DNA of 64,000 nucleotides from Planctomycetota bacterium (GCA_003695705.1 RFHU01000219.1:15825-79824); one strand, 5' to 3'. Shown: positions 1 to 18,157, counted from the first letter of the stretch. Translations and numbers: made by a program. Notes: generated by a model not told the origin, from the letters alone.

Positions 1-173
1 GCGCCGCCGCCGCGGATGCCGAGGCGGCGCGGATCACCGCCCCGACCTTGGTCGTGATCGGCCGCGTGGTCGGACTCCGCGGCCGCGGCCTGCGCTGGTG
101 GAACGACCGCGACGCACGGGAATGCGCCGAGGAGCCAACCCGCGTCGACGTGCTCGCGGAGGCCCGCGCATGA
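1..173 (+). CDS. cobA: Uroporphyrinogen-III C-methyltransferase (SUMT, CobA/CysG C-terminal type); 3' end only, 5' end lies outside the window
   Basis: The frame ending at TGA 171-173 translates ...ITAPTLVVIGRVVGLRGRGLRWWNDRDARE. This matches the conserved C-terminus of SUMTs (PTLVVIG.VV.L). The stop overlaps the next start as ATGA. Confidence 0.55.
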   Translation, partial: AAAADAEAARITAPTLVVIGRVVGLRGRGLRWWNDRDARECAEEPTRVDVLAEARA

Positions 174-817
174 ACCGCAAGTATCCCGTCATGCTCGACC
201 TCCGGGGGCGTGCTTGCGTCGTCGTCGGCGGCGGAGCGGTCGCCCTGCGCAAGGTGGAGGGCTTGCTGGAGTGCACCGAATCGGTCCGGGTCGTCTCCCC
301 CAGCATCCACCCGGGGCTTGCCGCCCTCGTCCAAGCGGGCCGCGTCGAATACCTTGCGCGCGCCTACGCCCCCGGCGATCTCCGGGGCGTCTTTCTCGTC
401 GTGGCCGCCACGGACGACCCGGACACGAACGAGGCCGTGTGGCAGGAGGCCGAAGCGCTCGGAGTGCTCGTCAACACCGTGGACGACCCTCCGCGCTGCA
501 GTTTCTACGTCCCTGCCGTGGTCCGTCGCGGCGCGCTGACCCTCGCGATCTCCACCGACGGGAAGAACTGCGCTCTCGCGGCTGCACTCCGTAGAGAACT
601 CGAGGAGCGGTTCGGGCCCGAATACGGCCCGCTCCTCGATCTCCTTGGCGAGTTGCGCGACCGCATTCGCCGCGAGGAGCGCGACCCGTCCCGTCGCAAG
701 GCCTTGGCGGAGCGACTCGCCACGGCCGGACTGGATCGCCTCGTCGCTTGCGAGGGCCTGCCCGCCGCCCGTCGTCGCGCCGAAGAACTCGTCGCCCAAC
801 GAGGAGCCACCGCGTGA
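170..817 (+). CDS. Precorrin-2 dehydrogenase / sirohydrochlorin ferrochelatase, SirC/Met8/CysG N-terminal-domain-like (NAD-binding)
   Basis: ATG at 170 begins MNRKYPVMLDLRGRACVVVGGGAVALRKVEGLL. This is a Rossmann GxGxxA/G motif at the very N-terminus, as in the CysG N-domain/SirC. The 98..817 track ORF is trimmed to this in-frame ATG, which overlaps the upstream stop. Confidence 0.7.
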   Translation: MNRKYPVMLDLRGRACVVVGGGAVALRKVEGLLECTESVRVVSPSIHPGLAALVQAGRVEYLARAYAPGDLRGVFLVVAATDDPDTNEAVWQEAEALGVLVNTVDDPPRCSFYVPAVVRRGALTLAISTDGKNCALAAALRRELEERFGPEYGPLLDLLGELRDRIRREERDPSRRKALAERLATAGLDRLVACEGLPAARRRAEELVAQRGATA

Positions 818-2289
818 ACTCCCCCCTCCAAGCTTCTGCCGTGCCCCGTCAATGGACCCTTGACTCCACTGATGCTCCTCCCCCGGACTCCGTACGCCAC
901 GGCGAGACCGGCTTCGCCCGTGCCTGGTTGGGGCTGGCCGTCGGCAGCCTCCTCTTTGCCGGTGTCCTGGCCCTGCTCTTGGTCGTGGCCCGGACGCCGC
1001 CCTTCGTGTACTGGGTCCGCGATCCCCTGTTCTTCAAGCGCTGTCTCGTCGTCCACGTCGACCTGGCCCTGGTGGTCTGGTTCTACGCCTTTCTGGCCGC
1101 GCTGCATCAACGGATTCCCGCCCACGCGCCCAGGAGGGTCCCCGCAGCGGCAGGCTTCGCACTCTCCTTGGCCGGCATCGGTGCGCTGGTCGCTGCCGTC
1201 GGCATCGAGGGGGTGGAGCCGGTCCTGAGCAACTACGTCCCCGTTCTGGACCATCCTCTGTTCCTCTGCGGACTGGCGGCCTTCGGCGCCGGAGTGGCCC
1301 TGAGCTTCTTCGACGGACGCTTGCTCCCTTGGCGCGAAGCCGAGGGCACCGACCTCGACCTGCCCCCCGCCGCGCGACCCGGGCTGCGCGCCGCGGCGAT
1401 CGCCTTCCTCCTCGCGCTCGCGACCTTCGTCGGCGGCGCCCTGGGGACGCCGAGCGGACTTCCCGCGCTTCCGCGCTACGAGCTTGCGATGTGGGGGGGC
1501 GGCCACGTCCTGCAGTTCGCCAGCAGCGCTGCCATGGTCGGCGCCTGGCTCCACCTCGTCGAGCGCGCGAGCGGCGTCGCGCCCGTGGGAAGGCGTCTGA
1601 GCGCTGTCCTCTTCGCGCTCCTCGTCGCGCCCCTTCTCGGCGCACCCCTCCTCACCCTCGCCGGCAGCGACGCGACCGTTGCCCGCGACGGGTTCACTCA
1701 GCTCATGCGCTGGGGGATCTTCCCCGTGGTCAGCGTGTTCCTGCTCCTCTGCCTGCGCGCGCTCTGGCGCGGCGGCGGCGCGCGCACCGCGGCCGGCGTC
1801 GGCTTTCTGACCAGCGCCGGGCTGTGCGTGCTCGGCTACTCCCTCGGCGCGCTGATCCGCGAGCCGAACACCATGGTCCCCGCCCACTACCACGCGTCCA
1901 TCGGTGCGGTGACGGCTTCCTTCATGGCCGTCGCCTACTTACACCTCGAGCCCCTCGGACTCCGTCTCCCCGCCGGTCGCTTGGGCCGCTGGGCACACTG
2001 GCAACCCGCTCTGTTCGGGGTGGGCCAGACGGTCTTCGCCGTCGGCTTCGGGGCGGCTGGCCTGGCCGGCGCCGCCCGCAAGGCCTACGGGCCCGAGCAG
2101 AGCATTCGATCCCTGCAGGAGTGGATCGGCCTCACGGTCATGGGCGCGGGCGGCTTGGTCGCTGCCGCCGGCGGGATCCTCTTCCTCACCATCATGGCGG
2201 CGGCCTTCTGGCCCCGCCTCAGGGGCGCGCTGCCCGGGAGGTCTGCATGTCGGACGAAGTTGAGCGCAAACACCCTCTTCAGCGGCTAA
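814..2289 (+). CDS. Polytopic membrane protein (~490 aa) distantly related to heme-copper oxidase subunit I; function unknown
   Basis: GTG at 814 overlaps the upstream TGA (GTGA). There are at least 12 hydrophobic spans. Two segments resemble COX1 helix VI (MWGGGHVLQFASSAAM vs FFGHPEVYILILP) and helix X (PAHYHASIGAVTASFMAVAY vs AHFHYVLSMGAVFAI). No adjacent HH pair typical of helix VII is seen. Confidence 0.55.
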   Translation: MNSPLQASAVPRQWTLDSTDAPPPDSVRHGETGFARAWLGLAVGSLLFAGVLALLLVVARTPPFVYWVRDPLFFKRCLVVHVDLALVVWFYAFLAALHQRIPAHAPRRVPAAAGFALSLAGIGALVAAVGIEGVEPVLSNYVPVLDHPLFLCGLAAFGAGVALSFFDGRLLPWREAEGTDLDLPPAARPGLRAAAIAFLLALATFVGGALGTPSGLPALPRYELAMWGGGHVLQFASSAAMVGAWLHLVERASGVAPVGRRLSAVLFALLVAPLLGAPLLTLAGSDATVARDGFTQLMRWGIFPVVSVFLLLCLRALWRGGGARTAAGVGFLTSAGLCVLGYSLGALIREPNTMVPAHYHASIGAVTASFMAVAYLHLEPLGLRLPAGRLGRWAHWQPALFGVGQTVFAVGFGAAGLAGAARKAYGPEQSIRSLQEWIGLTVMGAGGLVAAAGGILFLTIMAAAFWPRLRGALPGRSACRTKLSANTLFSG

Positions 2290-2399
2290 TGGACAACACC
2301 TGGCTGCTCCTCGCGCTGGGGCTCTTGGTGCCGATCCTCTCCTACACGGCGTGGGGCTGGATCGAACTCCTCACCCTCCCCGACGCGAAGCTGCCTTGA
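2289..2399 (+). CDS. Small single-TM membrane peptide (36 aa), possibly a small oxidase subunit
   Basis: The ATG overlaps the upstream TAA (TAATG). The product is MDNTWLLLALGLLVPILSYTAWGWIELLTLPDAKLP, a single hydrophobic helix. It is tightly packed between two oxidase genes. Confidence 0.4.
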   Translation: MDNTWLLLALGLLVPILSYTAWGWIELLTLPDAKLP

Positions 2400-2412: not shown

Positions 2413-2946
2413 ATGAGCATTTCCCCGCCCCCCCCGGGCTGGTTCAAGGCCCCCACCGGTGGCGAACGCACCTGGGTTGGCATCGCCCTTCTGTGGTGCC
2501 TGCTGATGTTCTTGATGATGCCCTACTGGCACTTCCGCGGCAAACAGAACAGCACCGGCGAGGCCTACCGCGTCGCTCCCGCGGACTTCGCCGCACGGGT
2601 CGAGCGCTTCGTCGAGAGCAACAAGGTCGCCGAAGACCCGCAGAGCAAGAAGCCCATCGTCGAGCCGGCACCCGGTGGAGATGCCTACCTGCAGGCTCGG
2701 ATGTGGGACTGGTACCCCGTGCTCCGCCTGAAGAAGGGCCAGGAATACCGCCTGCACATCTCGTCGCTCGACCTCCAGCACGGCTTCTCTCTCCAGCCCA
2801 TGAACATGAACTTCCAAGTCCTTCCTGGCTACGACCACGTCCTCACCATCACGCCCACACGGACGGGCGACTACCGGGTCGTGTGCAACGAATTCTGCGG
2901 GATCGGACACCACACCATGGTCGGAAAGATCGAAGTGAGGGACTGA
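2413..2946 (+). CDS. Heme-copper oxidase subunit II-like cupredoxin with a complete CuA site
   Basis: GGAGGA lies 6 nt upstream of the ATG. There is an N-terminal TM helix. The CuA ligand pattern is DLQH....CNEFCGIGHHTM (H, C-x-E-x-C-G-x2-H-x2-M), as in CoxB/NosZ-type CuA. Confidence 0.85.
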   Translation: MSISPPPPGWFKAPTGGERTWVGIALLWCLLMFLMMPYWHFRGKQNSTGEAYRVAPADFAARVERFVESNKVAEDPQSKKPIVEPAPGGDAYLQARMWDWYPVLRLKKGQEYRLHISSLDLQHGFSLQPMNMNFQVLPGYDHVLTITPTRTGDYRVVCNEFCGIGHHTMVGKIEVRD

Positions 2947-4484
2947 TGAGCAGCGTCGGCAACTTCCTCCCCAACCAGTCCCGGACTTGCGACACGACCG
3001 GGCTCCCCGTGTGCCTTACGGCCCAGTTCTTCATCAAGGCCCACGCTGTGTGCGCGGTGGTCTTCCTCCTCGTCGGCGCGATCGGCGCCATCCTCCTGGC
3101 GCTGACCCGCTGGCCCGCGGTGCAACTCCTCGGGCCGACCTGGTACTACCGCACGGTCACCCTCCACGGGATCAACATGCTCATCTTCTGGATCCTGTTC
3201 TTCGAGGTGGCCGTCCTCTACTTCTGCTGCACGAGCCTGCTCAACTCGCGCCTGTTCAGCAGAGGCGTAGCGTGGCTCGGCTTCGTCCTCATGGTCGTCG
3301 GCGCGCTGATGACCGACGTGGCCATCTTCCAGGGCCGCTCCGACGTCATGATGACCTCCTACGTCCCCCTCAAGGCCTCGCCCTGGTTCTACCTCGGCTT
3401 GATCCTGGTGGCGGTCGGCACGCTGATCGGGGTGGTGAACTACTTCCTCACCCTCTACATCGCGAAGCGCGACGGGACCTACGATGGTTCGCTGCCGCTG
3501 GTGGTCTTCGGCGCCACGGCGGCCGCCATCATCGCCGTGGTTGCCATCCTCCACGGCGCCGTCGCGCTCATTCCGACCTGGGCCTGGAGCATGGGCTGGC
3601 TCTCCGAGCCCCCGGATGCGGCCTGGTATCGGCTGATCTGGTGGGGCCTGGGCCACGTATCCCAGCAAGTGAACGTGTGCGCCATGGTCTCGGTGTGGTA
3701 CTTCCTCGCCACCCTGACCACGGGCGCCAAACCGCTCAACCAAGCCGTCTGCCGCACCGCCTTCGTCTTCTACGTGTTGTTCATCAACCTGGCGTCGGCC
3801 CATCACCTGCTGGTGGACCCCGGCGTGGGCGCCACTTGGAAGATCTGGAACACCTCCTACGCCATGTATCTGGCCGTGCTCGCCTCCATGATCCACGGCT
3901 TCACCGTCCCGGCCTCGGTGGAATCCGCCATGCGCGCCAAGGGCTATACCAAGGGGCTCTTCGGCTGGCTCTTCGCGTGCCCCTGGAAGAACCCCGGCTT
4001 CTCGGCCTTCTTCCTCTCCTTGGTCATCTTCGGCTTCATGGGCGGCATCACCGGCGTGACGCTAGGGACCCAGCAGATCAACATCATTGCCCACAACACA
4101 CTGCGGATCCCGGGTCACTTCCACGCCACCGTCGTCGGCGGTACCACGCTCGCCTTCATGGGCCTAACCTACTACGTGGTGCCCCTGATCTTCCGGCGCG
4201 AGTACTACGCGCGTCCGCTGGCCCGCATCCAGCCCTACTTGTTCGGCAGTGGGATCGCGATCATGGCCCTCGCCATGTCCTTCGCCGGCAGCTACGGCGT
4301 GCCGCGGCGGGTGTGGGACGCAGACGCCGGCGCCAACCTGTCGGCCGGCGCCAACCTGATGCTCGCCGGGGTGGGTCTTGGCGGCACGCTCGCCTTCATC
4401 GGGCTCTTGACCTTCATTCTGCTCACCGTCGCGGCGGTGTTCTTCGGCAAGAAGAACGAAGGCCGCCCCATGACCGCCTGGTAA
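2946..4484 (+). CDS. Heme-copper oxidase superfamily catalytic subunit I (512 aa) with an atypical active site; candidate NO reductase / unconventional oxidase
   Basis: The ATG overlaps the subunit II stop (TGATG). Metal ligands are present at helix II (LHGINMLIFWILFFE), helix VI (WWGLGHVSQQVNV), helix VII (SAHHLLVDPG) and helix X (GHFHATVVGG). In the helix VI motif the Tyr expected 4 residues after His is Gln. That pattern is NOR-like, not A/B-type oxidase-like. Confidence 0.85.
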   Translation: MSSVGNFLPNQSRTCDTTGLPVCLTAQFFIKAHAVCAVVFLLVGAIGAILLALTRWPAVQLLGPTWYYRTVTLHGINMLIFWILFFEVAVLYFCCTSLLNSRLFSRGVAWLGFVLMVVGALMTDVAIFQGRSDVMMTSYVPLKASPWFYLGLILVAVGTLIGVVNYFLTLYIAKRDGTYDGSLPLVVFGATAAAIIAVVAILHGAVALIPTWAWSMGWLSEPPDAAWYRLIWWGLGHVSQQVNVCAMVSVWYFLATLTTGAKPLNQAVCRTAFVFYVLFINLASAHHLLVDPGVGATWKIWNTSYAMYLAVLASMIHGFTVPASVESAMRAKGYTKGLFGWLFACPWKNPGFSAFFLSLVIFGFMGGITGVTLGTQQINIIAHNTLRIPGHFHATVVGGTTLAFMGLTYYVVPLIFRREYYARPLARIQPYLFGSGIAIMALAMSFAGSYGVPRRVWDADAGANLSAGANLMLAGVGLGGTLAFIGLLTFILLTVAAVFFGKKNEGRPMTAW

Positions 4485-4495
4485 GGAGGCCCCTC

Positions 4496-4756
4496 GTGAC
4501 CGAACCGACGCCCGAACCGAGCGCCAGCCAACCCGAAGGAGCGGGTCCGACGGAGGAAACGACCCGTCCGGCGTCCGAGGGCAAGGGCCAGCACCCCGAG
4601 GAGGTGCTCTCCGCCGCCGCGGCGCTGCAGCAGGAGGGGGCCGACAGCCACCACACCCCCGGAACGGTGGCTCTGACTTTCATCTTCCTCCTCTGCTTTG
4701 CCGTCTACTACTTCGCCAACTGGAAGGCCCTGGCGGACGTGTGGCACGTTCGATGA
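4496..4756 (+). CDS. Small membrane protein (86 aa) with a C-terminal TM helix, possible accessory oxidase subunit
   Basis: AAGGAGG lies 7 nt upstream of a GTG at 4496. The N-terminal half is hydrophilic and acidic. The C-terminal helix is TFIFLLCFAVYYFANWKALADVW. Its stop overlaps the Sco start (ATGA). Confidence 0.45.
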   Translation: MTEPTPEPSASQPEGAGPTEETTRPASEGKGQHPEEVLSAAAALQQEGADSHHTPGTVALTFIFLLCFAVYYFANWKALADVWHVR

Positions 4757-5736
4757 CCGCCGGCAAGAAGTCCCCTGCTCCCCCCAGCGCGCGGTTTGCC
4801 GCCTGGACCCTGGAGACGCTGCGGGGCTGGCGTTTCCCGAGCTTCATGATCTTCACGCTGAGCTTCGCTCAGCTCGTCCTCCTTGCCCTGCTCTTCGTTC
4901 CCCCGGCGGAGACCGGGCTGGGGGCCTTCGCCGAAAGCTTCAAGACCTGGTGCTTCGGCTACGACCCCGCGACGGGAGAGGTGGAGCCCGGCTACGTGAT
5001 CATGCTGCTCGCAAATCCGTTCCTCCTCGACTTGGTCATCCTCGGGGTGTGGTGGATCCCGCTGCGCGAGGTCCTCCGCGAGCGTCCGCGCGCGCTGCTG
5101 CGTAGCGCGGGCGCCGCGGCCCTGGTCACCGCTCTCTTCGCCGGAGCCTTGGCGAGCTTCGCCGAGGAGCGCCCCCGGGGCCCGCTCCCCTTTCCCGCCG
5201 AGGAGCTGCGCATCGCGCTCACCCCGCCCGACTTCGAGCTTACCGACCAGGAAGGCGCTCCCGTCTCCTTGCACGCCCTGCGGGGACGCGTCGTCCTGGT
5301 CACGGCGGTCTACGCGACCTGCGGTTTCACCTGCCCCATGATCATGGGCCAGAGCAAGCGCGCCCTCGCCGAGCTCACCCCCGAGGAGCGCGAGGAGATC
5401 ACGGTGGTGGGGATCACCCTCGATCCGGCCCACGACACTCCGGAAGTCCTCGCCCGCATGGCGGAGGGGCAGGGGGTTGCGGCGCCGCTCTACCGGCTGG
5501 TTACGGGACCTCCCCCCGAAGTCGAGCGCGTGCTCGACCGCTTCGGGGTCGAGCGACATCGGAACCCGGAGACGGGGATCATCGACCACGCCAACCTGTT
5601 TCTTCTCATCGATCGGCGCGGGCGCATCGCCTACCGCCTGTCCCTCGGCGACCAGCAAGAGCGCTGGCTCGCCACTGCGCTGCGCCTGCTCGTGCGCGAG
5701 CCCTCCCCCACGGCGGAGGGTCGCGCCTTGGAGTGA
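4753..5736 (+). CDS. sco: SCO1/SenC-family thioredoxin-like copper chaperone (CuA assembly) with an extended multi-TM N-terminus
   Basis: The CGFTCP (CxxxC) motif and the downstream His (DHANLFLL) are typical of Sco proteins. There are about 3 N-terminal TM helices. It is translationally coupled on both sides. Confidence 0.8.
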   Translation: MTAGKKSPAPPSARFAAWTLETLRGWRFPSFMIFTLSFAQLVLLALLFVPPAETGLGAFAESFKTWCFGYDPATGEVEPGYVIMLLANPFLLDLVILGVWWIPLREVLRERPRALLRSAGAAALVTALFAGALASFAEERPRGPLPFPAEELRIALTPPDFELTDQEGAPVSLHALRGRVVLVTAVYATCGFTCPMIMGQSKRALAELTPEEREEITVVGITLDPAHDTPEVLARMAEGQGVAAPLYRLVTGPPPEVERVLDRFGVERHRNPETGIIDHANLFLLIDRRGRIAYRLSLGDQQERWLATALRLLVREPSPTAEGRALE

Positions 5737-7829
5737 GCGTCGTGCAACGCCCCGCCGCTTCCGCCGCTCCGCGCAGCGCGCAACCTCCGCTGCGCGGAGA
5801 TGCCGTCCTGCGGCGGCTGGACCGCGCGCTCTTGCGCGTGGTCCACGCCGCGGGACGGCTGGTGCCCGAGGGGCTGAATCCCCTCGAGCAAGCCGGCGGC
5901 GTGGCCAACGTATGCCTGGTGGTGGCCATCCTCAGCGGGGCCCTCCTCCTCTTCTGGTATTCCTCCAGCGTCCACCTGGCCTACGCCTCGCTGGAGAAGG
6001 CCGGAGCGTCCTGGCTGGGGGGGCTGACTCGTTCTCTCCACCGCTATAGCTCGGACGGCTGCGTCTTCTTCGTCCTCATCCACGCAGCTCGCTTGACCTT
6101 GGCGCGCCGGATTGCCGGGCCCCGCTGGCTGGCCTGGGTCACCGGCTGGCTGCTCTTCGTCCTTCTCGTCCTCGTCGGCTGGCTCGGCTACTGGCTGGTG
6201 TGGGACCAACGCGCCCACCGCGTGGCCCTGGGGACCGCGGATCTTCTCGACGCCTTGCCCATCTTCTCCGAGCCCCTCGCCCGCTCCTTCCTCAGCGATG
6301 ACGGTGTGAACTCCCTCCTCTTCTTCGTCGTCTTCTTCCTGCACATGCTCCTCCCCGCGGGCATGGGCATAGCCCTGTGGTTGCACGTCGCCCGCCTCTC
6401 TCGGTCGCGCTTCTTCCCCGGGCGCACGCTCACGCTCTGGATCCTCGGGACCCTGTGCGCCGTCTCGTTCCTGTTTCCGGCCACCAGCGCGCCGCCGGCG
6501 CGCATGGCCGCGCTTCCACAGCGCTTCACCATGGACTGGTGGTACCTGTTTCCCCTCCTCCTCACCGACCGACTCTCCGGAGGCGCGCTCTGGGCCCTGC
6601 ATCTCATTGGCGGCCTCGCCCTCTTCAGCGCCCCCTGGTGGCTGCGCCGCGGCGGCTCGGCAGGCACCCTCCGGACCGCCACGACCGAAGCGAGTCGCTG
6701 CAACGCCTGCGAAACCTGTTTTCACGACTGTCCCTACCTGGCCATCCGCATGGTCCCGCGCAGCGACGGGAGCACTCGCTACGCCACCCAGTCGGAAGTG
6801 GACCCCTCGCGCTGCGTGGGCTGCGGCATTTGCTCGGGCTCCTGCGACTCGGCGGGGGTCGGCCTCCTCGACTGGCTCCCCCCCAAGGCCGAGCGCCGTC
6901 GGCTCGAAGGCTGGCTCGAGGCCCATACGGGGGACCCTCCCCCGGTGGTCTTCCTCTGCGCCGAAGGAGCTAGCGCAGAGTGGCGAGTGGACTCGCTCAA
7001 CGGTCGCTGCGACGCCTTGCCGGGTTGCTACGTCCTCAGCGTTCCCTGCCTTGGCTGGGTGAACGGCTACCTGGTGGACCGTGCTTTGGATCGCGGTGCG
7101 GCCGCCGTGGTCCTTGCAGGCTGCGGTCCCGAGGGCTGTGCCTACCGCGAAGGCTTCGCGCACACCGCCGAGCGCATGCGGGGGCGGCGCAAGCCCGTGA
7201 GCAAGCGCGGCGAAGCCGGCGACTCCCGCATCCACCTGCTCGCGCACGGGCCCGGCGAAGGCGCGGCGCTCCGGGCCGCCGTCGATGCCATTCGGCGCGG
7301 AGAGGCCCCCCGGGCCCGGGCGCCCGTTGGCGCGCGCGCCTGGGCGGGGGGCGCTGTCCTCGCCGCATTGCTCGGGGGGTTCGCCTGGCTGGGGAGCGAC
7401 CTCCCTTACTCGGCTCCGCCGAGTCCGGAAGCGGAGTTGGTCGTGTCCTTCAAGCTGCTCGGACGCCTGCAGGGCGGCATGCGCCGGCTCTCCACCGAGG
7501 AGCTCGAGGCCCTGCCCGTCCATATGCGTCCCAAGGACGGTCGGGTGCCCACGGACCGGCGCCACGCCGACGTGCGCCTGCGGGTCCGCGTGGACGGCCG
7601 CCTGCTGCGCGAGGAGCGCTACGCCCCCGGCGGCCTGTGGGGCGACAAGAACAGCGTAGCCCTCGAGACCATCCCGCTCGCTTCTGGGCGGCACCGGGTC
7701 GAGGTGGAGCTGAGCGACGACCCGGCCGCGAACGAATGGCCGTACCGCTACGAAGCCGAGCTGGAATTCCCGCGCGGGGAGCGGCGCGTGGTGCTTTTCG
7801 ACCGCGAGCACGGCTTCCGCTGTCCCTGA
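5733..7829 (+). CDS. Fusion protein: di-heme cytochrome b-like membrane domain + 2x[4Fe-4S] ferredoxin + MvhD/FlpD-like domain + C-terminal TM/beta-rich domain
   Basis: The N-terminus (about 300 aa) has 5-6 TM helices carrying His residues (VVHAAG, FVLIHAARL, FFLHMLLPAGM, LWLHVARL). It is followed by CNACETCFHDCP and CVGCGICSGSCD ferredoxin motifs. Next comes VVFLCAEGA...CLGWVNGYLVDRALDRGAAAVVLAGCGPEGCAYREG, which resembles the methyl-viologen-reducing hydrogenase delta subunit. The GTG overlaps the Sco stop (GTGA). Confidence 0.7.
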   Translation: MSVVQRPAASAAPRSAQPPLRGDAVLRRLDRALLRVVHAAGRLVPEGLNPLEQAGGVANVCLVVAILSGALLLFWYSSSVHLAYASLEKAGASWLGGLTRSLHRYSSDGCVFFVLIHAARLTLARRIAGPRWLAWVTGWLLFVLLVLVGWLGYWLVWDQRAHRVALGTADLLDALPIFSEPLARSFLSDDGVNSLLFFVVFFLHMLLPAGMGIALWLHVARLSRSRFFPGRTLTLWILGTLCAVSFLFPATSAPPARMAALPQRFTMDWWYLFPLLLTDRLSGGALWALHLIGGLALFSAPWWLRRGGSAGTLRTATTEASRCNACETCFHDCPYLAIRMVPRSDGSTRYATQSEVDPSRCVGCGICSGSCDSAGVGLLDWLPPKAERRRLEGWLEAHTGDPPPVVFLCAEGASAEWRVDSLNGRCDALPGCYVLSVPCLGWVNGYLVDRALDRGAAAVVLAGCGPEGCAYREGFAHTAERMRGRRKPVSKRGEAGDSRIHLLAHGPGEGAALRAAVDAIRRGEAPRARAPVGARAWAGGAVLAALLGGFAWLGSDLPYSAPPSPEAELVVSFKLLGRLQGGMRRLSTEELEALPVHMRPKDGRVPTDRRHADVRLRVRVDGRLLREERYAPGGLWGDKNSVALETIPLASGRHRVEVELSDDPAANEWPYRYEAELEFPRGERRVVLFDREHGFRCP

Positions 7830-7853
7830 GGGCCACGGAGCGAAGGAGGAGAC

Positions 7854-9005
7854 ATGGCCGCGACGAAGCAACCGGCAGGCCCCGAGGAGCGGCTCCCCGT
7901 GTCCACAGGCCCGATCCCAGCAGCTGGGCGTTCGGGCGACGGGTCTGCCGCAGACGTCCGACGGGCCCGGAGCACCGGCCTGGCCTCCGCGGACGCCCGG
8001 GGGTGCGAGCCCGAGAGGCTGGCCTCGGCGTGCGGGATCTCCCCCCGCGGCGTCGCCACGGCCGCGCTCGTCCCTCCCTTCGCTCAGGGAGCGAGGGCCG
8101 TGGAGTCACCGGCCCTCCTCGAGGCCGCGCGTCGATCATCCCTCGCCGGCGCGGCCGCCTGGCTGGTCGATCTCGTAGACCTGGTCAAGGCGCGGTTGAA
8201 CTGCCTCGTCCTCGTGACCATCGCCGTGGGCTACCAAGTCGGCCGAGACCTCGTCTTCGACCGTTCCCTCTTCGCGTGGACCCTGCTGGGAGCCTTCCTT
8301 GGCGCCTGCGGCGCCTGCGCGCTCAACCAGTGGTGGGAGGCGGAGCACGATCGCTGCATGCGGCGTACGGCCCGGCGACCCCTCGCCGCCGGGCGCCTTT
8401 CGAGGGATGCGGCCTTGGGGCTCGGCTTGGCCCTCCTGGGCGCCGGGACCGTGGTCCTGCGCACCTGCCATTCCCTCGCGGCCACCCTGAACCTAGCCAT
8501 TGCTGCGGGCTATCTGCTCCTCTATACGCCCCTCAAGCGCCGGAGCGCCTGGTTCCTGCTCCCGGGCGCCGCGGCCGGCGCCGCCCCGCCCCTCATCGGC
8601 TGGTCGGCGGCGCAGGGGAGCCTGGGTGCGGGCGCGTGGGCGCTCTTCGCGGTGGTCTTCTCCTGGCAGTTCCCGCACTTTTGCGCCATCGACTGGTTGC
8701 ATCGAGATGACTACCGCCGCGCGGGCCACCGCACGCCGGTCGTCGTCGACCCCACGGGTCGCCTCGGCTGCGCCCTGACCCTCGCTGGCGCGCTGGGCTT
8801 TTTCGCCTCGTGCCTCGCGCCGGTCGGCCTCGGCCTCGGCGGAACCTACTACGCCGCGGTGGCCGTGCCCCTAGGCCTCGCCTACCTCGCCCTGAGCCTG
8901 CGCTTCGCCTTCGCGCCGAGCGTCGCCTCCGCGCGCGGGCTCTTCTTCGGCAGCCTGTGCGTCCTGCCCCTCGTCCTCGGCGCGCTGGTGCTGGTTCCGG
9001 CTTAA
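7854..9005 (+). CDS. ctaB: Protoheme IX farnesyltransferase (heme O synthase), UbiA family
   Basis: GGAGGAG precedes the ATG. The motifs ALNQWWE..D..M.RT..RPL and a YxxxK-like UbiA signature are present across multiple TM helices. An N-terminal extension of about 90 aa may indicate a later true start. Confidence 0.85.
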   Translation: MAATKQPAGPEERLPVSTGPIPAAGRSGDGSAADVRRARSTGLASADARGCEPERLASACGISPRGVATAALVPPFAQGARAVESPALLEAARRSSLAGAAAWLVDLVDLVKARLNCLVLVTIAVGYQVGRDLVFDRSLFAWTLLGAFLGACGACALNQWWEAEHDRCMRRTARRPLAAGRLSRDAALGLGLALLGAGTVVLRTCHSLAATLNLAIAAGYLLLYTPLKRRSAWFLLPGAAAGAAPPLIGWSAAQGSLGAGAWALFAVVFSWQFPHFCAIDWLHRDDYRRAGHRTPVVVDPTGRLGCALTLAGALGFFASCLAPVGLGLGGTYYAAVAVPLGLAYLALSLRFAFAPSVASARGLFFGSLCVLPLVLGALVLVPA

Positions 9006-9027: not shown

Positions 9028-10233
9028 GTGACCGTGCCGCCCCCCAGCACCGCGCTCGCCTCTGCGCCGACCTGGCGGCGCGAACCCTACCGCCTGCTCT
9101 TTCCCCTCGGCGTCCTCCTCGCCTGGTGGGGCGTAGGGCATTGGCTGCTCGTCGGCCTGTTCGGCATCGGCTCCTGGAGCGGCGTCTTCCACTCCATCGC
9201 GCAGATTCAGGGCTTCCTCATGGCCTTCGCCTGCGGCTTCCTCTACACAGCGGTCCCCCGCCGCACCCAGACCTGGCCGCCCGCCCCCTGGGAAATGGCG
9301 GTCGCCCTCGCCGCACCGCCCGCCACCACCGCCTGCGCCGCGCTTGGCGCCTTGGCCCTTGCCCAGGCCTGCTGGGGCGTGCTGATGCTTACCCTGCTCG
9401 CCTTCTGCCTGCGTCGTTTCCTCGCTCGCAACGCGGGCCGCAGACCTCCCGACTGCTTCCTCTGGGTTCCCCTCTCCTTCGTCCTCGCGCTGGCGGGGGC
9501 GGGGGCCATTGGAGCGCAGCGCGGACTCGGCCCCGAGTGGTTCTGGCTCCACGACCTGGGACAGAAGTGGATCCTCCAAGGGCTCTTCGTGGGGCTCATC
9601 GTCGGCCTGGGCGGAATGGTCCTTCCCCTCCTCACCCGCGGCGAGGCGCCGCCCGACGCCAGTTCCGGCGTCGGGAGCCGCCTACGGCGTACGGGGCACT
9701 TCGCCTCCTGGCTTGGGCTGGCCGGCAGCTTCGTGCTCGAAACCCGCGGCGCGCCGGCGATCGGCTACGCGGTCCGAGCGGGCTTGACCCTTGCGCTCCT
9801 CCTCGGAGTTGCACGCCTCCACCGACCGCCTTGCCTCCCCGGCTTGCATCGCCGCCTGATCTGGGCCTCCGCCTGGTGCCTCCCGCTGGGCTACGCGTTC
9901 GCTGCGCTCGACCCGGGCCGTGCCCAGGCGGGCCTGCACGTGGTCTTCATCGGAGGCTTCGCCGCCCTCGCCCTCGGGGTGGGGCTCCACGTCACCTTGG
10001 CCCACGGCGGCTACCAGGGGCTGGTCCGCAAGAGCCCCTGGCAGGTGGGCGCCCTGGGCGCGCTCCTCGCCTCGGCCACCGCGGCCCGAGCGGCCCTGGT
10101 CTTCCGTCCCGACGCGCTGAGACCGCTGCTGGTCGCGGCGGCCGCCTCCTTCCTGCTCGCCACCCTCGCCTGGTTCCACCTGCTCTTGCCGCGCACCTGG
10201 CGTCCGGCTCCCCCCGACGAGGCGAACCCGTGA
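9028..10233 (+). CDS. NnrS-like polytopic heme/copper membrane protein (NO-stress associated); family assignment tentative
   Basis: It is about 400 aa with about 12 TM helices and several conserved-looking His residues (GHWLL, FHSIAQIQGF, HVVFIGGF, LAHGGY). Size, topology and the nitrogen-oxide gene context fit NnrS. Confidence 0.45.
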   Translation: MTVPPPSTALASAPTWRREPYRLLFPLGVLLAWWGVGHWLLVGLFGIGSWSGVFHSIAQIQGFLMAFACGFLYTAVPRRTQTWPPAPWEMAVALAAPPATTACAALGALALAQACWGVLMLTLLAFCLRRFLARNAGRRPPDCFLWVPLSFVLALAGAGAIGAQRGLGPEWFWLHDLGQKWILQGLFVGLIVGLGGMVLPLLTRGEAPPDASSGVGSRLRRTGHFASWLGLAGSFVLETRGAPAIGYAVRAGLTLALLLGVARLHRPPCLPGLHRRLIWASAWCLPLGYAFAALDPGRAQAGLHVVFIGGFAALALGVGLHVTLAHGGYQGLVRKSPWQVGALGALLASATAARAALVFRPDALRPLLVAAAASFLLATLAWFHLLLPRTWRPAPPDEANP

Positions 10234-10661
10234 CCGAGATCCTCCCCCACGCGAACGCACTCCTGAACGCGCTCGTGGCGGTCTTGCTCCTCTGGGGACG
10301 CCGTGCGATCCGCCGCGGGGACCGCCGGCTCCACCCCCGCTTGATGCTCTCTGCCCTCGGCGTCGGCCTGCTCTTCCTCGCCGGCTACGGCCTGCAGGTC
10401 TCCCTCTCCGGGCACCGACGCTTTCCGGGCGACGACTGGGTGCGTGTCCTGTTCTTGGCGATCCTGGGCACGCACACCGCGCTGGCCGTGCTGACCGTTC
10501 CCCTCGTCGGCGGCGCCCTGGGCCTGGCCCTGCGAGGGCGCCTCGTCGCGCACCGCCGCCTGGCGCGCCTCGCCTGGGGGGTCTGGCTCTTCGTCGCCCT
10601 CTCGGGGATCGTCATTTACTGGCTGAACAACCACCTTCGCCCGCCGGGAGGTGCCGGGTGA
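10230..10661 (+). CDS. DUF420-family small membrane protein (oxidase-associated)
   Basis: It is 143 aa with 4 TM helices. The GTG overlaps the upstream TGA. Size and topology match the DUF420 proteins commonly encoded beside caa3-type oxidase genes. Confidence 0.45.
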   Translation: MTEILPHANALLNALVAVLLLWGRRAIRRGDRRLHPRLMLSALGVGLLFLAGYGLQVSLSGHRRFPGDDWVRVLFLAILGTHTALAVLTVPLVGGALGLALRGRLVAHRRLARLAWGVWLFVALSGIVIYWLNNHLRPPGGAG

Positions 10662-11089
10662 GCAACGGGCTCTTTCCTCAGACCGTCGAATACGCGCTGC
10701 GTCTCATGGCCCATCTCGCCGTTGCGGGGCGCAACGGTTCGCTGCCCTCCCAGGACCTGGCCGAGGCGACCGACATTCCCCTCGCCTACGTGTCCAAGGT
10801 GCTCCGCAAGCTCGTCGTGGCCGGACTCCTCGAGTCCCAGCGCGGTCACGGCGGCGGCTTCCGGCTGGCGAAGAGTCCCTCGCGGATCAGTTTCGCGGCC
10901 ATCATGGAGGCCGTGGGCTACGAACCCGAGCCGCGCGCCTGCGCCTTCGGGCAAGAGCGCTGCGACTCCGAGAATCCCTGCCTGCTCCATCCCGCCTACG
11001 CGGCCCTCAAGGAGCGCTTCGCCGATTGGGCGCGAAACACGACGCTCACCGACGTTCGGCGGGGGACCAGCGGACGGTACATTCTTTGA
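10658..11089 (+). CDS. Rrf2-family transcriptional regulator with three Cys, NsrR/IscR-like (probable NO- or Fe-S-sensing)
   Basis: There is an N-terminal wHTH (VEYALRLMAHLA...SQDLAEATDIPLAYVSKVLRKL). The Cys triad CAFGQERCDSENPC is typical of cluster-binding Rrf2 regulators. The GTG overlaps the upstream stop (GTGA). Confidence 0.8.
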   Translation: MSNGLFPQTVEYALRLMAHLAVAGRNGSLPSQDLAEATDIPLAYVSKVLRKLVVAGLLESQRGHGGGFRLAKSPSRISFAAIMEAVGYEPEPRACAFGQERCDSENPCLLHPAYAALKERFADWARNTTLTDVRRGTSGRYIL

Positions 11090-11289: not shown

Positions 11290-12831
11290 GTGAACCATCG
11301 CAATTCCCTGATCCTGTGCAGTGCCTTGGGCCTGGGTCTCGCCGCCGCGGTCCCGGCCAGGGCGCAAGAAGGCTCCGAAGTCGACGCCCTGCGCGCGCGG
11401 CTCGCCGAGCTGGAGAAGCGCCTCGAAGCGGTCGAGGGCACCGCAAAGGACCCGAGCGCGGTCGGCGCCCCGGAAGGGAGCGCAGCACCCGAGGCCTCCA
11501 CGGAGCCGGCGGCGCCCGCCGAGAAGGAGGCGCCGGCGAAGAAGGGGAAGAAGGGCACTTTCTCCTTCGACCTCCCCGGAGGCCTCCGGCTCCGCCTTTG
11601 GGGTCAAGCCCGCTGGCGGGGAGAGTACCGCGGCGACACCTACGTCCAGCCCAAGACCAACAGCACGACGGATTTCGTCGGACAGCGCACTCGGCTTGGC
11701 CTCGACTTCGACTTGAACAAGCATCTCGGCGTGCGGGTGGCGCTCCAGGACGTTCGCCGTTGGGGTGACGTGGGCGACGGCCTCACCGGGCCCCGCCTGG
11801 CCACCGACCGCGCAGAGATTCACCTCTACGAGGGGTACGGCGAGCTGCGCCGCCCCTGGGACCTCCCCCTGACCCTCCGCGTCGGCCGCATGCGCGTTCC
11901 GCAGCTCGGCGACCAGCGGCTGATCTCGAACCTGGACTGGCATCTCGTGTCTCGTTCGTGGGACGGCGTGCAGGCCACCTTCGAGCCCGAGGGGTGGTGG
12001 ATCATGGCCTTCGCGCACAACGTGCGCGAGCCCACCGGTCTGGTGGCCGGGACCGACGAGAACGATGACCTCTGGTTCAGCGGCCTCTACGTATCCAACC
12101 GCATGGTCGAAGACCTCCAGGTGGACCTGTTCCTCTACTGGCGCTGGCTGGGCGACAACAAGCTGGGGGCCATCGTCACCGACCACAAGGGTGACCGCGG
12201 CGTGCGCACGGACTACACCTTTGGGGCGCGGGTCAAGGGGAAGGCCGGCCCCCTGGGCTACGGCGGCCTGATTGCCTACCAGTACGGCGACCAGGCCGGC
12301 GACATCGTCGCCGCGTGGGCGGGCGCCGTGACGCTCTCCTTCGTCCAGCCTCTCGGCGGCGGGATGAAGTTCAAGGTCCTCGCCGAATACGCCTACGCCA
12401 GCGGAGATCCCGACCCCACCGACAGCCGCGTACAGACCTTCGACCCCTTGCTCCCCTTCGCCCACTACTACCACGGGCACCAGGACTTGTTCGCCTGGCG
12501 CAACCTGCACGCGGTGGCCCTCAAGGCGGTGTTCTGGCCTCTGAAGTGGTTGAGCCTTCATGCCGACACGCACTTCTTCTTCCTCGATCGGCGCGACGAC
12601 CGCTGGTACGGCGTCGGCTTCACCCGCACCGACGGAGCAGGCGCCGCCCGGCACTGGGATTCGGGGTACGTGGGGGCGGAGACCGACCTCTACGTCAAGT
12701 TCAAGGTGCTCGAGCACATTTCCGTGTGGGGAGGCTACTCGCACTTCTTCGAAGGCGCTTACGTTCGCGCCACCGGCTCCAAGTCGAGCGACCAGGACTG
12801 GGCCTTCCTGATGGTTACCTTGGACTTCTGA
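11290..12831 (+). CDS. Alginate-export (AlgE-like) family outer-membrane beta-barrel protein
   Basis: GGAGG precedes a GTG. The signal peptide is LILCSALGLGLAAAVPARAQ. A coiled-coil/Ala-Pro-rich linker is followed by beta-barrel-like alternating segments. The protein ends in the C-terminal Phe (TLDF) typical of OMPs. Confidence 0.65.
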   Translation: MNHRNSLILCSALGLGLAAAVPARAQEGSEVDALRARLAELEKRLEAVEGTAKDPSAVGAPEGSAAPEASTEPAAPAEKEAPAKKGKKGTFSFDLPGGLRLRLWGQARWRGEYRGDTYVQPKTNSTTDFVGQRTRLGLDFDLNKHLGVRVALQDVRRWGDVGDGLTGPRLATDRAEIHLYEGYGELRRPWDLPLTLRVGRMRVPQLGDQRLISNLDWHLVSRSWDGVQATFEPEGWWIMAFAHNVREPTGLVAGTDENDDLWFSGLYVSNRMVEDLQVDLFLYWRWLGDNKLGAIVTDHKGDRGVRTDYTFGARVKGKAGPLGYGGLIAYQYGDQAGDIVAAWAGAVTLSFVQPLGGGMKFKVLAEYAYASGDPDPTDSRVQTFDPLLPFAHYYHGHQDLFAWRNLHAVALKAVFWPLKWLSLHADTHFFFLDRRDDRWYGVGFTRTDGAGAARHWDSGYVGAETDLYVKFKVLEHISVWGGYSHFFEGAYVRATGSKSSDQDWAFLMVTLDF

Positions 12832-12851
12832 GCGCTTCCGGGCGCTCTGGG

Positions 12852-12878
12852 ACCGCTGCAGGCGACCGGCGGAGGTCC
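12852..12878. terminator. Perfect hairpin GCGACCGGCGG-aggtcc-CCGCCGGTCGC between convergent genes (bidirectional terminator candidate)
   Basis: This is an 11-bp perfect inverted repeat with a 6-nt loop. It lies 21 nt after the OMP stop and 120 nt after the glpD stop. No U-tract is present. Confidence 0.45.
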
Positions 12879-12997
12879 CGCCGGTCGCCCGCCGGCTCCA
12901 GGCTCGGGCCTGGCCCCGATCGAGCCGCGGGCGCAGCAGCAGCCGTCGCCCCGGGGAGGGCGGCAGGCAGCGCCGCCGCAGCGGACGGGCCACGCGA

Positions 12998-14707
12998 TCA
13001 GGCGTCGGCGGGCATGCGCTTCATGCGGGAGGTCGGCGGCACCATTCGCCGGCCCTTGTAGCGCCGGGAGAGGGCGACGAGCTGCCGGTAACGACGCACC
13101 TCGAGCTGCTCGCGCTCGCGGTCCCAGCCGAGGACCTCTCCCAGGACGCGCGCCGCTTCTTCGGCCACCGCCACGCCCTGGTCGCGTGCCTTGAGGAAGA
13201 CCTGGGTGCGGCGCCGGAGGACGTCGTCGAGGCGCTCAGCTCGCTCTCGGAGCGCGCCGAACACGACCTCGTCGACCAGGTAGGGAAGATCGGGAACCAG
13301 CCTCCCCGGACGGACGCCGGCTTCCTTCCCCGCGGCCAGAACCTCGGGTGCCCGGAGTCCGTAGCTGCGCACGAGGTGCCGCGCGACGTCGTCCTCCAGC
13401 GCGTATTCGCGCGCCAACTCGCGCGCGCGGGCGTCGATGTCGGCCAGGGCCGCGGGGTCGCTCGCGCCGATGAGGGGAACCTCTCGCGTCCGGCAGGGGT
13501 CGAGCTTGGCCTTGGCGCCGAGCTTGCCCAGCACGCGGTCCACGGCCTGCTCCGCCATCAGCCGGTAGGTGGTGAGCTTGCCGCCGACGATGGCCAGCAG
13601 GCCCGGGTCGATGTTCAGCAAGGCGTGCTCGCGAGAGACGTCGGACGCTCGGTCGCTTTCCGGATCTTGCATGAGGGGCCGGAGGCCCGCCCATGTGGCG
13701 ATGATGTCGTCCGCACCGGCGCACAGCGACGGGAAGTAGTGGTTCGCCGTTTCCAGCAGGTAGGCAACGTCTTCGGCGCTGGCCTCCACTCGGTCGGGAG
13801 GTTCGTCGTCGTCGGTGTCGGTGGTCCCAACGATGGTCCGCTCGTCCCAGGGGATCGCGAACAGGACGCGGCCATCGCGCACCGACGTGAGCACCACCGC
13901 GTGACGCAGGGGGAGTTGCTTGGCGTCGAGGACGATGTGGGCTCCCTTGGTGGGGCGCAGGCAGGGCGGCCTGCCGCGCTCGGCCAAGATGCGGTCGGTC
14001 CACGGGCCTGCGGCCACCACCGTTACCCGTGCCCGCACCGGGAAGAGTTCGCTCGTCCCGTCGCCGAGCGATGCGGCGAGGGCGTCGCGTACGCGAAGCC
14101 CTCGGGTGATGCCAATCGAGTCGGTCTCGATGCCCACGGCCTCCACGTAGGTGGCGACCACGGCGCCGTGGTGTTCCGCGTCCAGGGCGGTCTCGAGGGT
14201 CAGCCGCGCGTCGTTGGTCCGGCAGTCGTAGTAGCGCGCGGACCCGCGGAGCCCTCGGGCGAGCAAGGCCGGCTCCGCCCGGTGCGTTTTCCGCGGGCTA
14301 AGCAGCTCGTGCCGCCGGTAGTTGCGGAACGCCGCCAGGGCGTCGTAGAGCCACATGCCGCAGGTGAGCTGCAGCATGCCCACGCGCGCTCCCTTGTAGA
14401 CGGGAAAGAGGAAGGGCAGAGGCTCGGCGAGGTGCGGCGCATTGCGCGTGAGCAGCCAGCGCTCCCGCGTTCCCTCGAACACGAGTCCGAACTCGAGGTG
14501 CTCGAGGTAGCGCAGGCCCCCGTGGATCAGCTTGGAGGACGCAGAGCTGGTGCCGCGTGCCAGATCGCCCTTCTCCACCAGCGCGACGCTGAGTCCCCGC
14601 AGCGCCGCGTCGCGAGCGATGCCGGCGCCGGTGATGCCGCCTCCGAGGACGAGCAGGTCGAAGGTGTGATCCTTGAGCCGGGAGAGGATCCGCGCCCGGT
14701 CGCTCAT
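12998..14707 (-). CDS. glpD: FAD-dependent glycerol-3-phosphate dehydrogenase
   Basis: The N-terminal dinucleotide motif is DLLVLGGGITGAGIARDAALRG. The protein is 569 aa with GlpD-like conserved blocks. Confidence 0.85.
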   Translation of the reverse strand: MSDRARILSRLKDHTFDLLVLGGGITGAGIARDAALRGLSVALVEKGDLARGTSSASSKLIHGGLRYLEHLEFGLVFEGTRERWLLTRNAPHLAEPLPFLFPVYKGARVGMLQLTCGMWLYDALAAFRNYRRHELLSPRKTHRAEPALLARGLRGSARYYDCRTNDARLTLETALDAEHHGAVVATYVEAVGIETDSIGITRGLRVRDALAASLGDGTSELFPVRARVTVVAAGPWTDRILAERGRPPCLRPTKGAHIVLDAKQLPLRHAVVLTSVRDGRVLFAIPWDERTIVGTTDTDDDEPPDRVEASAEDVAYLLETANHYFPSLCAGADDIIATWAGLRPLMQDPESDRASDVSREHALLNIDPGLLAIVGGKLTTYRLMAEQAVDRVLGKLGAKAKLDPCRTREVPLIGASDPAALADIDARARELAREYALEDDVARHLVRSYGLRAPEVLAAGKEAGVRPGRLVPDLPYLVDEVVFGALRERAERLDDVLRRRTQVFLKARDQGVAVAEEAARVLGEVLGWDREREQLEVRRYRQLVALSRRYKGRRMVPPTSRMKRMPADA

Positions 14708-14723
14708 GCGGAGATCCTATCCT

Positions 14724-17926: not shown

Positions 17927-18157
17927 TTCCCTCACGCTACTCCGCGCCTCGCTCACGGTCCATACGCCCGGCACGCGGTGCACGCGGCGCGTGTCCTCGC
18001 GACGCCCGCCCACCGGCTCGTCCCCTGCGCGCAGAGGGCCCCCTCGCGGGCGCCGACGGACGGCTTGCCCGGCCGCGCGGTCGGCAGTCGGCCCTTCGCC
18101 CGGATCGTGTCGGCTCGGGGGGGCAGGCGCCGGACGGGGCGGGGCACCACCGCCGCT

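Follow-up and report, generated by a model that had tools for sequence, protein, structure and literature searches.

A cytochrome b-ferredoxin-MvhD-like fusion protein as the probable membrane redox relay of eNOR-type nitric oxide reductase gene clusters

Introduction

The 64-kb stretch of DNA analysed here (64,000 nucleotides of a Planctomycetota bacterium, GCA_003695705.1 RFHU01000219.1:15825-79824; hereafter the window) carries a heme-copper enzyme gene cluster in which the gene for a SCO1/SenC copper chaperone is followed by a gene, referred to below as the target, whose product joins a cytochrome b membrane domain, two [4Fe-4S] ferredoxin motifs, an MvhD/FlpD-like domain and a C-terminal transmembrane (TM) helix with a beta-sandwich. 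An earlier note on this DNA had proposed this four-module architecture, and all of its assignments proved right when examined with the Pfam cytochrome b, Fer4 and FlpD models, with PDB matches and, for the TM/beta domain, with an AlphaFold2 model. We report here that the target is tied to one kind of heme-copper enzyme and suggest that it is probably a membrane redox relay dedicated to a nitric oxide (NO) reductase cluster of the eNOR type.

Results

The target is a genuine gene

The features of the locus are collected in Table 1. The G+C content of the window is approximately 70 % and long open reading frames (ORFs) lie on both strands, one of which, an antisense ORF of 746 aa (5631-7871, minus strand), spans the whole target; its frame lacks coding composition and it was rejected as a high-GC artefact. 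G+C by codon position in the target frame is 0.73/0.55/0.87, coding composition being found on the plus-strand frame only. This pattern, together with hundreds of full-length homologues, establishes that the target is a genuine gene and not a chance high-GC ORF. Its 698-codon translation contains the ferredoxin motifs CNACETCFHDCP (residues 323-334) and CVGCGICSGSCD (residues 361-372). The GTG start overlaps the SCO1 stop by 4 bp; a second GTG at 5742, with GGAG lying 8 nt 5' of it, gives a protein of 695 aa, and it is there that a public gene call for the identical protein (P0001, 695 aa) begins. Scans for promoters and terminators gave nothing beyond chance.

Table 1. Features of the target gene and its neighbourhood in the window
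Feature	Position	Strand	Basis and remarks
CysG N-terminal-type precorrin-2 dehydrogenase/ferrochelatase	98..817	+	TIGR01470, 157 bits
Divergent heme-copper-superfamily paralogue	748..2289	+	Pfam COX1, 43.7 bits; no NCBIfam match
Small one-TM ORF, subunit IIa-like, 5' of subunit II	2250..2399	+	Sequence; homologous small gene in L085; called genes in L002/L004
Heme-copper subunit II	2413..2946	+	CuA motif CNEFCGIGHHTM; CuA ligands H123, C158, C162, H166, M169
Heme-copper subunit I, B-family-derived	2946..4484	+	Pfam COX1, 220 bits; ba3 alignment
Small TM ORF 3' of subunit I (uncertain start); corresponds to a 13th helix, fused to subunit I in Defluviimonas	4481..4756	+	
SCO1/SenC copper chaperone, N-terminal membrane region	4741..5736	+	Pfam SCO1-SenC, 81.9 bits
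Target gene, 698 aa	5733..7829	+	Cytochrome b, 2x[4Fe-4S], MvhD/FlpD-like, TM helix and beta-sandwich
Membrane domain, residues ~20-305	5790..6647	+	Cytochrome b fold, helices A-F, six TM helices
Putative heme-ligand His codons	6039..6386	+	HX13H pairs: H103 6039-6041, H117 6081-6083, H204 6342-6344, H218 6384-6386
GYWLVWDQ	6186..6209	+	Aligned to b6 cd-loop GYSLPWDQ, Qo (p-side quinol) site
DWWYL	6534..6548	+	Start of putative ef helix, where cytochrome b has PEWY; variant motif
NuoI/TYKY-like ferredoxin module, two CxxCxxCxxxCP motifs	6687..6851	+	Pfam Fer4_7; PDB NuoI, FwdF
MvhD/FlpD-like domain	6945..7286	+	Pfam FlpD; candidate [2Fe-2S] ligands C409, C439, C464, C469
Seventh TM helix, residues 535-555	7335..7397	+	Model and topology; predicted to bring the chain back to the periplasm
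Predicted periplasmic beta-sandwich, residues 557-698	7401..7826	+	No Pfam family, no conserved metal-ligand set
Heme O synthase (CtaB/CyoE)	7854..9005	+	TIGR01473, 225 bits, cutoff 210
NnrS, NO-response membrane protein	9028..10233	+	Pfam NnrS, 101.9 bits
Rrf2-family regulator, NsrR-like	10658..11089	+	Pfam Rrf2, 108.7 bits; after a 424-bp gap

The membrane domain resembles cytochrome b of b6f and bc1 complexes

The Pfam Cytochrome_B model (PF00033) matched residues 43-222 of the target with 78.3 bits (curated cutoff 27.2), and among PDB sequences the N-terminal part of the protein matched cytochrome b6 with an E value of 2.7e-19, as well as bc1 cytochrome b. When the target model was submitted to Foldseek, approximately 290-330 columns were aligned to full-length bc1 cytochrome b, and the membrane part is therefore taken to comprise helices A-F, extending beyond the four-helix b6 core. 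Conservation was counted over 77 near-full-length relatives from genome assemblies, in all 77 of which, as well as in alignment A1, the putative heme ligands H103, H117, H204 and H218 are invariant; residues G152, Y153, W154, W157 and D158 of the motif GYWLVWDQ are likewise invariant in the family. The PEWY motif proper is not present in the target, which has DWWYL instead. The family form of the latter is D-[W/A]-[W/F/Y]-Y-L, with D268 retained in 77/77 sequences, Y271 in 71/77 and L272 in 75/77, and a helix at residues 269-280 of the model fits an ef helix at this point. DWWYL would be the positional counterpart of PEWY, a correspondence drawn from its position and not from a residue-by-residue alignment.

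The likeness to cytochromes b6 and b of the bc1 complex thus covers the fold of helices A-F, the HX13H pairs, the sequence context (RSLHRYSSD against RSVHRWSAS) and the GYxLxWDQ cd-loop. The target nevertheless differs from the b6f and bc1 systems in being without a Rieske protein, cytochrome c1/f and subunit IV, in the absence of helices G and H, and in having a ferredoxin module attached at what is predicted to be the n-side (Qi) face. No Rieske motif was found in the six frames of the window, and a partnership with Rieske protein and c-type cytochrome of the bc1/b6f kind was not seen in the related loci inspected.

The ferredoxin, MvhD-like and C-terminal modules

The middle part of the target was matched by Pfam Fer4_7 (residues 322-372, 27.9 bits against a cutoff of 27) and by 2x[4Fe-4S] proteins of the NuoI/TYKY and FwdF types in the PDB (E values of 1e-6 to 1e-10), all eight ferredoxin Cys being invariant in the 77 relatives and in alignment A1. 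The adjoining domain was matched by Pfam FlpD (PF02662; residues 405-518, 45.4 bits, cutoff 22.3) and, in the PDB sequence search, by the MvhD chain 9sfi_K (E 1.2e-4). Residues 315-520, which take in both modules, match positions 571-764 of HdrA2 as a single block (E 6.8e-18), whereas no NCBIfam model spans the whole protein. The four Cys that are candidate ligands of an MvhD-type [2Fe-2S] cluster all occur in the window copy and are kept almost throughout alignment A1, yet in approximately 26 of the 77 sequences, a clade of Opitutaceae type, they are replaced by A/T/D/A. The target thus shares with HdrA2 the ferredoxin-MvhD block and resembles MvhD; it differs from the Mvh-Hdr system in the attachment of this module to a membrane cytochrome and in the loss of the candidate Cys ligands in about one-third of the family. 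Neither an HdrA flavoprotein nor HdrBC nor a hydrogenase is encoded in the window, and no hydrogenase or HdrA-type partner gene was found in the conserved neighbourhood of the target loci. Loss of the candidate [2Fe-2S] ligands from so large a part of the family implies that an Hdr-style hand-over of electrons is not the conserved function.

An AlphaFold2 model of the target built on 70 family members (predicted local distance difference test score, pLDDT, 92.7; predicted template modelling score, pTM, 0.90) placed a C-terminal TM helix at residues 535-555, followed by an all-beta domain at 557-698. The latter, modelled alone, again scored highly (pLDDT 93). A Pfam search with this domain returned nothing at E<=1, and it has no significant neighbour in the PDB, the best match being to CARDB/CBM-like sandwiches at an E value of 0.012. 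In a Defluviimonas plasmid and a Mariprofundaceae metagenome-assembled genome (MAG) the beta-domain is a gene of its own, a split seen in Defluviimonas and L083. A copper site in this domain was considered and rejected, a His and two Cys that many members possess being found neither in the window copy nor in the majority of the GTDB set.

The density of Lys and Arg is 0.15-0.40 in the N-terminus and in the B-C and D-E loops of the membrane domain and 0.05-0.09 in the A-B, C-D and E-F loops, so that the loop charges obey the positive-inside rule for the canonical topology of cytochrome b. From cytochrome b homology, this rule and the model, we predict a cytoplasmic N-terminus, six TM helices, cytoplasmic Fe-S and MvhD modules (residues ~299-534) and a periplasmic beta-sandwich; the Fe-S and MvhD modules would then lie on the membrane face opposite to that of CuA. 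Taken together, the His and Cys of the hemes and of the ferredoxin are invariant whereas the MvhD Cys and the beta-domain vary, and the universal core of the family is therefore predicted to consist of two b hemes and two [4Fe-4S] clusters, with the MvhD cluster and the beta-domain as accessory parts.

The target is linked to a CuA-containing heme-copper enzyme

The analysis drew on 84 loci seeded on the target and on 168 related loci (L001-L168). The earlier note had proposed that co-occurrence of the fusion with CuA oxidases be analysed across genomes, and the linkage was found to be close: in the target-seeded loci CoxII, CoxI and SCO1 genes lie directly upstream wherever the contig extends far enough. 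The one exception found is a truncated paralogue of 487 aa with the cytochrome b and ferredoxin modules alone (L068, 9902-11365), which is not part of a heme-copper cluster and is flanked by PheRS genes and by a cytochrome P450 gene in convergent orientation. Frequent occurrence of the fusion away from oxidase operons, which the earlier note had named as a refutation, was thus not observed. The reverse test, made with metagenome loci seeded on subunit I and having at least 3.5 kb of downstream sequence (n=42), recovered the target in 39, downstream in 32 and divergently upstream in 7, while the other 3 lacked upstream sequence. The linkage is also present in isolates of Rhodobacterales and Pararhizobium.

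The remainder of the neighbourhood is less constant. A heme-copper paralogue without CuB is present in 72 of the 84 loci; the window representative, at the 5' side of subunit II, conserves only His103/253/380/382, that is, the heme ligands and the first CuB His, and since the helix-VII HH pair is missing it is expected to bind two hemes and no CuB. Its annotated start is overlapped by 70 nt by the CysG-like gene and is therefore probably too far upstream. Genes of 52-58 aa were called in L001-L004 at the position of the small ORF that follows subunit I. Heme O synthase adjoins the target in 23/84 loci, and in alphaproteobacteria it lies between subunit I and SCO. Among the 168 loci, hemerythrin is encoded directly downstream in 23, CtaA is encoded beside the cluster in 14 (including a Rhodothermales MAG) and Rrf2 genes flank 28. 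CtaA accompanies the cluster in a gammaproteobacterial contig (L088) together with NirS, the latter 3 kb away; NosZ lies near the cluster in Vulgatibacter, and a cytochrome c gene lies near it in L004 and L088. NnrS was found in the window alone among the loci examined.

Several further observations were made in these regions. The hemerythrin gene follows either the target or the split beta-domain gene (e.g. L085, 11062-11466) in alpha- and gammaproteobacterial and Rhodothermales loci, an arrangement that recalls the NorA/DnrN/YtfE-type di-iron proteins encoded beside NO reductase genes. In a Nitrospirae MAG (L065) a gene for a NuoF-like NAD(P)H flavoprotein stands between the genes for a full-length protein and a 496-aa paralogue without beta-domain, with a gene for a 973-aa fused CcoN-O-P-like cbb3 protein next (L065 positions 12006-13403, 13416-14906 and 15518-18439). 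This was the only NuoF-like neighbour in the 168 loci, and such a flavoprotein was accordingly rejected as a general cytoplasmic partner of the target. A metagenome protein (P0389) in which SCO1, cytochrome b and Fer4 appear fused has a linker that lacks a TM helix and resembles an out-of-frame SCO1 3' end; it is most likely a frameshift artefact, arising where the SCO1 stop and the target start overlap and were read through, and was not used as evidence. Elsewhere in the window, the minus strand has at 19188-20270 a strong match to the Volactin actin-like family (PF25216, 286 bits), in a genome that otherwise resembles the Myxococcota type, with many Ser/Thr kinase, PilZ, CheR and CheW genes, and at 30469-31941 a bacterial deoxyhypusine synthase homologue (PF01916, 240 bits) with an N-terminal extension of approximately 150 aa.

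The partner is probably an eNOR-type NO reductase

As the earlier note had stated, the operon has a CuA site, in subunit II, and no cytochrome c gene, no CxxCH motif occurring in any predicted gene of the window operon. ba3-type operons such as Thermus cba commonly lack a cytochrome c gene, so that its absence here is weak evidence for any substitute. The nearest PDB structures to subunit I are ba3-type (B-family) oxidases, and in an ungapped alignment to Thermus ba3 the CuB His and both heme His are retained, while the cross-linked Tyr237 becomes Gln241 and GHVSQQVN replaces GHPxVY. Residues S309, T315 and Y248 of the ba3 K channel correspond to S314, T320 and Y252 in the window protein. Across 69 loci the Gln pair Q240/Q241 and the CuA ligands are invariant, and the K-channel equivalents and the CuB and heme His are invariant or nearly so.

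By published criteria, Gln with one proton channel marks eNOR and Asn marks sNOR. A 2024 PNAS study describes eNOR as having a B-like K channel, heme As and a CuA subunit II, often with CtaA in the operon, and sNOR as lacking the S309 equivalent. The replacement of Tyr by Gln in all 69 loci, diagnostic of eNOR, therefore indicates that the partner is probably an NO reductase and not an ordinary oxidase; of the 'oxidase operon' of the earlier note, the heme-copper operon stands and the ordinary oxidase does not. Gene context agrees with an eNOR-type assignment, CtaA, NirS, NosZ, NnrS, Rrf2 and hemerythrin genes being found nearby in various loci.

The linkage to SCO1 had first suggested an sNOR cluster. 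Indeed, the norSY-senC-orf1 cluster of ammonia oxidisers likewise comprises subunit II, subunit I, SenC/SCO1 and a fourth gene, the last being likened to the target by cluster position only. This assignment was abandoned because Tyr is replaced by Gln and the S309 equivalent is retained, in contrast to sNOR, which has Asn at the active site and no S309 equivalent. The fourth gene of Nitrosomonas europaea, NE0681, is reported to be up-regulated 2.2-fold with its cluster under O2 limitation, and the Bacillus counterparts of the sNOR cluster have instead a small protein of 4-6 TM helices. No ammonia oxidiser was named among the 360 homologues listed.

Distribution of the family

Hundreds to thousands of hits came from each of three word-indexed searches, and among the matches listed the architecture was the same and nearly always full-length, the alphaproteobacterial set having three modules. 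An exhaustive HMMER scan of 1.84 billion cluster representatives gave 383 clusters (50 % identity) at E<=1e-30, and a relative of the target is encoded in 427 species-level genomes. Carriers include Myxococcota, Planctomycetota, Verrucomicrobiota, Calditrichota, KSB1, Nitrospirae and Rhodothermales as well as Gamma-, Alpha- and Zetaproteobacteria, with cultured Rhodobacterales and a Pararhizobium isolate among them, and the target together with its partner enzyme spans at least eight phyla. Public annotation names family members 'hydrogenase iron-sulfur subunit' or 'cytochrome b N-terminal domain-containing protein'.

Discussion

The analysis described here defines the target as a putative two-heme, two-cluster wire, in the window copy with an additional MvhD-type [2Fe-2S] site, whose gene forms an inseparable genomic unit with those for subunits I and II and SCO1. 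Our current working hypothesis, which we hold tentatively and at somewhat less than even chances, is that the protein is a maturation or maintenance factor of the reductase fed by the quinone pool, and not a catalytic electron-input subunit. The motifs GYWLVWDQ and DWWYL would form a quinol/quinone site on the p-side (periplasmic side) of the membrane, from which electrons may pass through heme bL and heme bH to the two [4Fe-4S] clusters and, where present, to the [2Fe-2S] cluster. These electrons would reduce a cofactor or metal required for assembly of the reductase, be it Cu destined for SCO1, the metal of CuA or of the active site, or a component of the heme O/A machinery. In keeping with such a role, the target always follows SCO1 and lies amid cyoE, SCO and CtaA, the assembly block of the operon. 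Furthermore, the terminal modules are evolutionarily loose, as seen from the loss of the MvhD Cys, the splitting of the beta-domain and its variable Cys and His. Finally, eNOR purified from R. marinus contained heme As in both heme sites and no heme b, and was active with N,N,N',N'-tetramethyl-p-phenylenediamine (TMPD)/ascorbate, from which it follows that no heme b protein is needed for turnover. A further possibility, that the target substitutes for heme A synthase, is weakened by gammaproteobacterial and Rhodothermales loci that carry CtaA besides the target.

A known protein with which this proposal may be compared is CcoG, the cupric reductase of cbb3 oxidase assembly. In CcoG, whose physiological donor is unknown, two [4Fe-4S] clusters lie in the cytoplasm, and a C-terminal TM helix leads to an Ig-like domain in the periplasm. 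Like CcoG/FixG, the target is encoded beside a heme-copper enzyme, and in it, too, a TM helix and a putative periplasmic beta domain come after two predicted [4Fe-4S] clusters; CcoG has no hemes, whereas the target appears to possess a built-in electron-input domain. The similarity is one of layout only. A weak NCBIfam match to NapH had suggested homology to CcoG/NapH, but hhalign against Escherichia coli YccM aligned 72 columns that hold only the generic ferredoxin motif, and neither Fer4_5 nor FixG_C matched the target in Pfam. That CcoG and YccM are not homologous to the target past this motif is one of several points that weigh against a maturation role. There is no conserved Cu- or Fe-binding motif in the family beyond the cluster ligands, and of genes for metal handling, P1B-ATPases included, SCO1 is the only one that recurs nearby. 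The Qo-type motifs are conserved as strongly as in respiratory cytochrome b, which a catalytic role with high flux would also fit, and the strict 1:1 synteny is just as compatible with a subunit that is loosely bound. Sequence does not reveal in which direction electrons flow, and the eNOR assignment itself comes from residue diagnostics rather than from a phylogeny with reference sequences.

The same features allow other readings, among which the one nearest to the proposal of the earlier note is that the target feeds the reductase directly: quinol would be oxidised at the Qo-like site and electrons would be transferred on the p-side to CuA, the beta-sandwich serving for docking, so that the protein would replace the bc1 complex and cytochrome c. 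The obligate linkage in both directions to a CuA enzyme, the invariant Qo-type motifs, the want of any cytochrome c or Rieske gene in 64 kb and the retention of the periplasmic domain, fused or split, are all consistent with this, and the low kcat of isolated two-subunit eNOR (0.68 s-1) could reflect a missing natural donor. It would, however, leave eight invariant Fe-S Cys on the predicted cytoplasmic side without a role, and the putative docking domain has neither a redox cofactor nor a conserved ligand set. The absence of heme b from purified eNOR, the cytochrome c gene near the cluster in L004 and L088 and the position of the target in the block of assembly genes also speak against it, and we consider direct electron input rather unlikely. 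Of the quinol-to-oxidase module that the earlier note had put in place of a cytochrome c donor, the tight linkage to a CuA operon is borne out, but with CuA across the membrane the predicted cytoplasmic Fe-S and MvhD modules would be no periplasmic stand-in for cytochrome c, and the loss of the MvhD Cys and an eNOR with heme As alone argue in the same sense. Maturation might alternatively proceed by flow in the opposite direction, a cytoplasmic reductant delivering electrons through the Fe-S clusters, bH and bL to periplasmic Cu(II) on SCO1 or CuA. A two-heme transmembrane wire with a cytoplasmic Fe-S/MvhD connector, translational coupling of the target to SCO1 and the NuoF-like flavoprotein gene between paralogues in L065 would suit an inside-to-outside reductase, for which the eukaryotic di-heme cupric/ferric reductases (Dcytb, Fre, Steap) are a precedent. 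With a NuoF-like neighbour in just one locus, no other recurring gene for a cytoplasmic donor, cd- and ef-loop motifs that signify a quinol site and not a metal site, and a dispensable MvhD cluster, we regard this as unlikely.

A further scheme is a bifurcation without Rieske protein, in which CuA takes the high-potential electron of quinol and the second passes via bL, bH and the Fe-S clusters to yield a low-potential cytoplasmic reductant. It is the sole scheme in which the Qo motifs, both hemes, the Fe-S clusters that occupy the Qi position on the n-side and an obligate CuA partner are all put to use, and the NuoF-like gene of L065 is compatible with it. It is also wholly inferential: no cytoplasmic acceptor recurs among the 168 loci, one entire clade has lost the MvhD cluster, eNOR is functional when purified without the target, and docking of CuA at the position of the Rieske head is without structural support. 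We therefore judge bifurcation improbable, and to the same degree its corollary that reduction of NO (or O2) would drive reverse electron flow in a new form of quinol-based bifurcation. The earlier note had also allowed for a redox-sensing module, and a sensor that controls the reductase, its Fe-S clusters or hemes responding to NO, to O2 or to quinone-pool state, would be at home in an NO-responsive neighbourhood (Rrf2, NnrS, hemerythrin), as both kinds of cofactor bind NO. This suggestion did not hold up, the target having nothing like a signalling output domain; a dedicated Rrf2 regulator is already in place, a two-heme, two-cluster wire exceeds what sensing needs, and a sensory role appears highly improbable.

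In its overall plan the target is reminiscent of membrane systems such as NarI/NarH, HdrE/HdrD and DsrM/DsrK, in which a di-heme b membrane subunit feeds cytoplasmic Fe-S clusters. All would have in common a quinol site on the p-side, a pair of stacked hemes and Fe-S clusters in the cytoplasm, by analogy and not by homology, whereas the heme domain of the target is of the bc1/b6 type, the modules form a single polypeptide and there is no catalytic cytoplasmic subunit. The parts of the protein are thus known, but their combination and its obligate partnership are undescribed, namely a Rieske-less cytochrome of the b6/bc1 type that shares one polypeptide with a NuoI-like ferredoxin, a domain resembling MvhD and a beta-sandwich of a new kind. 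In agreement with the earlier note, a literature search on MvhD, cytochrome b and heme-copper enzymes found no characterised example; the eNOR and sNOR literature searched contained no discussion of the architecture, and that on eNOR no description of physiological electron supply or of cofactor assembly.

Enzymes of the eNOR type are reported to be among the commonest NO reductases in metagenomes and to yield nitrous oxide (N2O) under microoxic conditions, and the target is probably a missing accessory of this environmentally common N2O-producing enzyme. Whichever role holds, it provides a concrete and testable missing component. If it serves maturation, it would be the first reductase of oxidase assembly to contain its own quinol-oxidising heme domain, and if it serves electron input, a bc-type cytochrome functioning without a Rieske protein. 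The pairing of a GHxSQQ subunit I with the target gene could also serve as a genomic marker that separates these reductases from the true ba3 oxidases with which annotation pipelines confuse them. The target is, in short, a large redox protein with invariant cofactor ligands that accompanies these probable N2O-forming enzymes.

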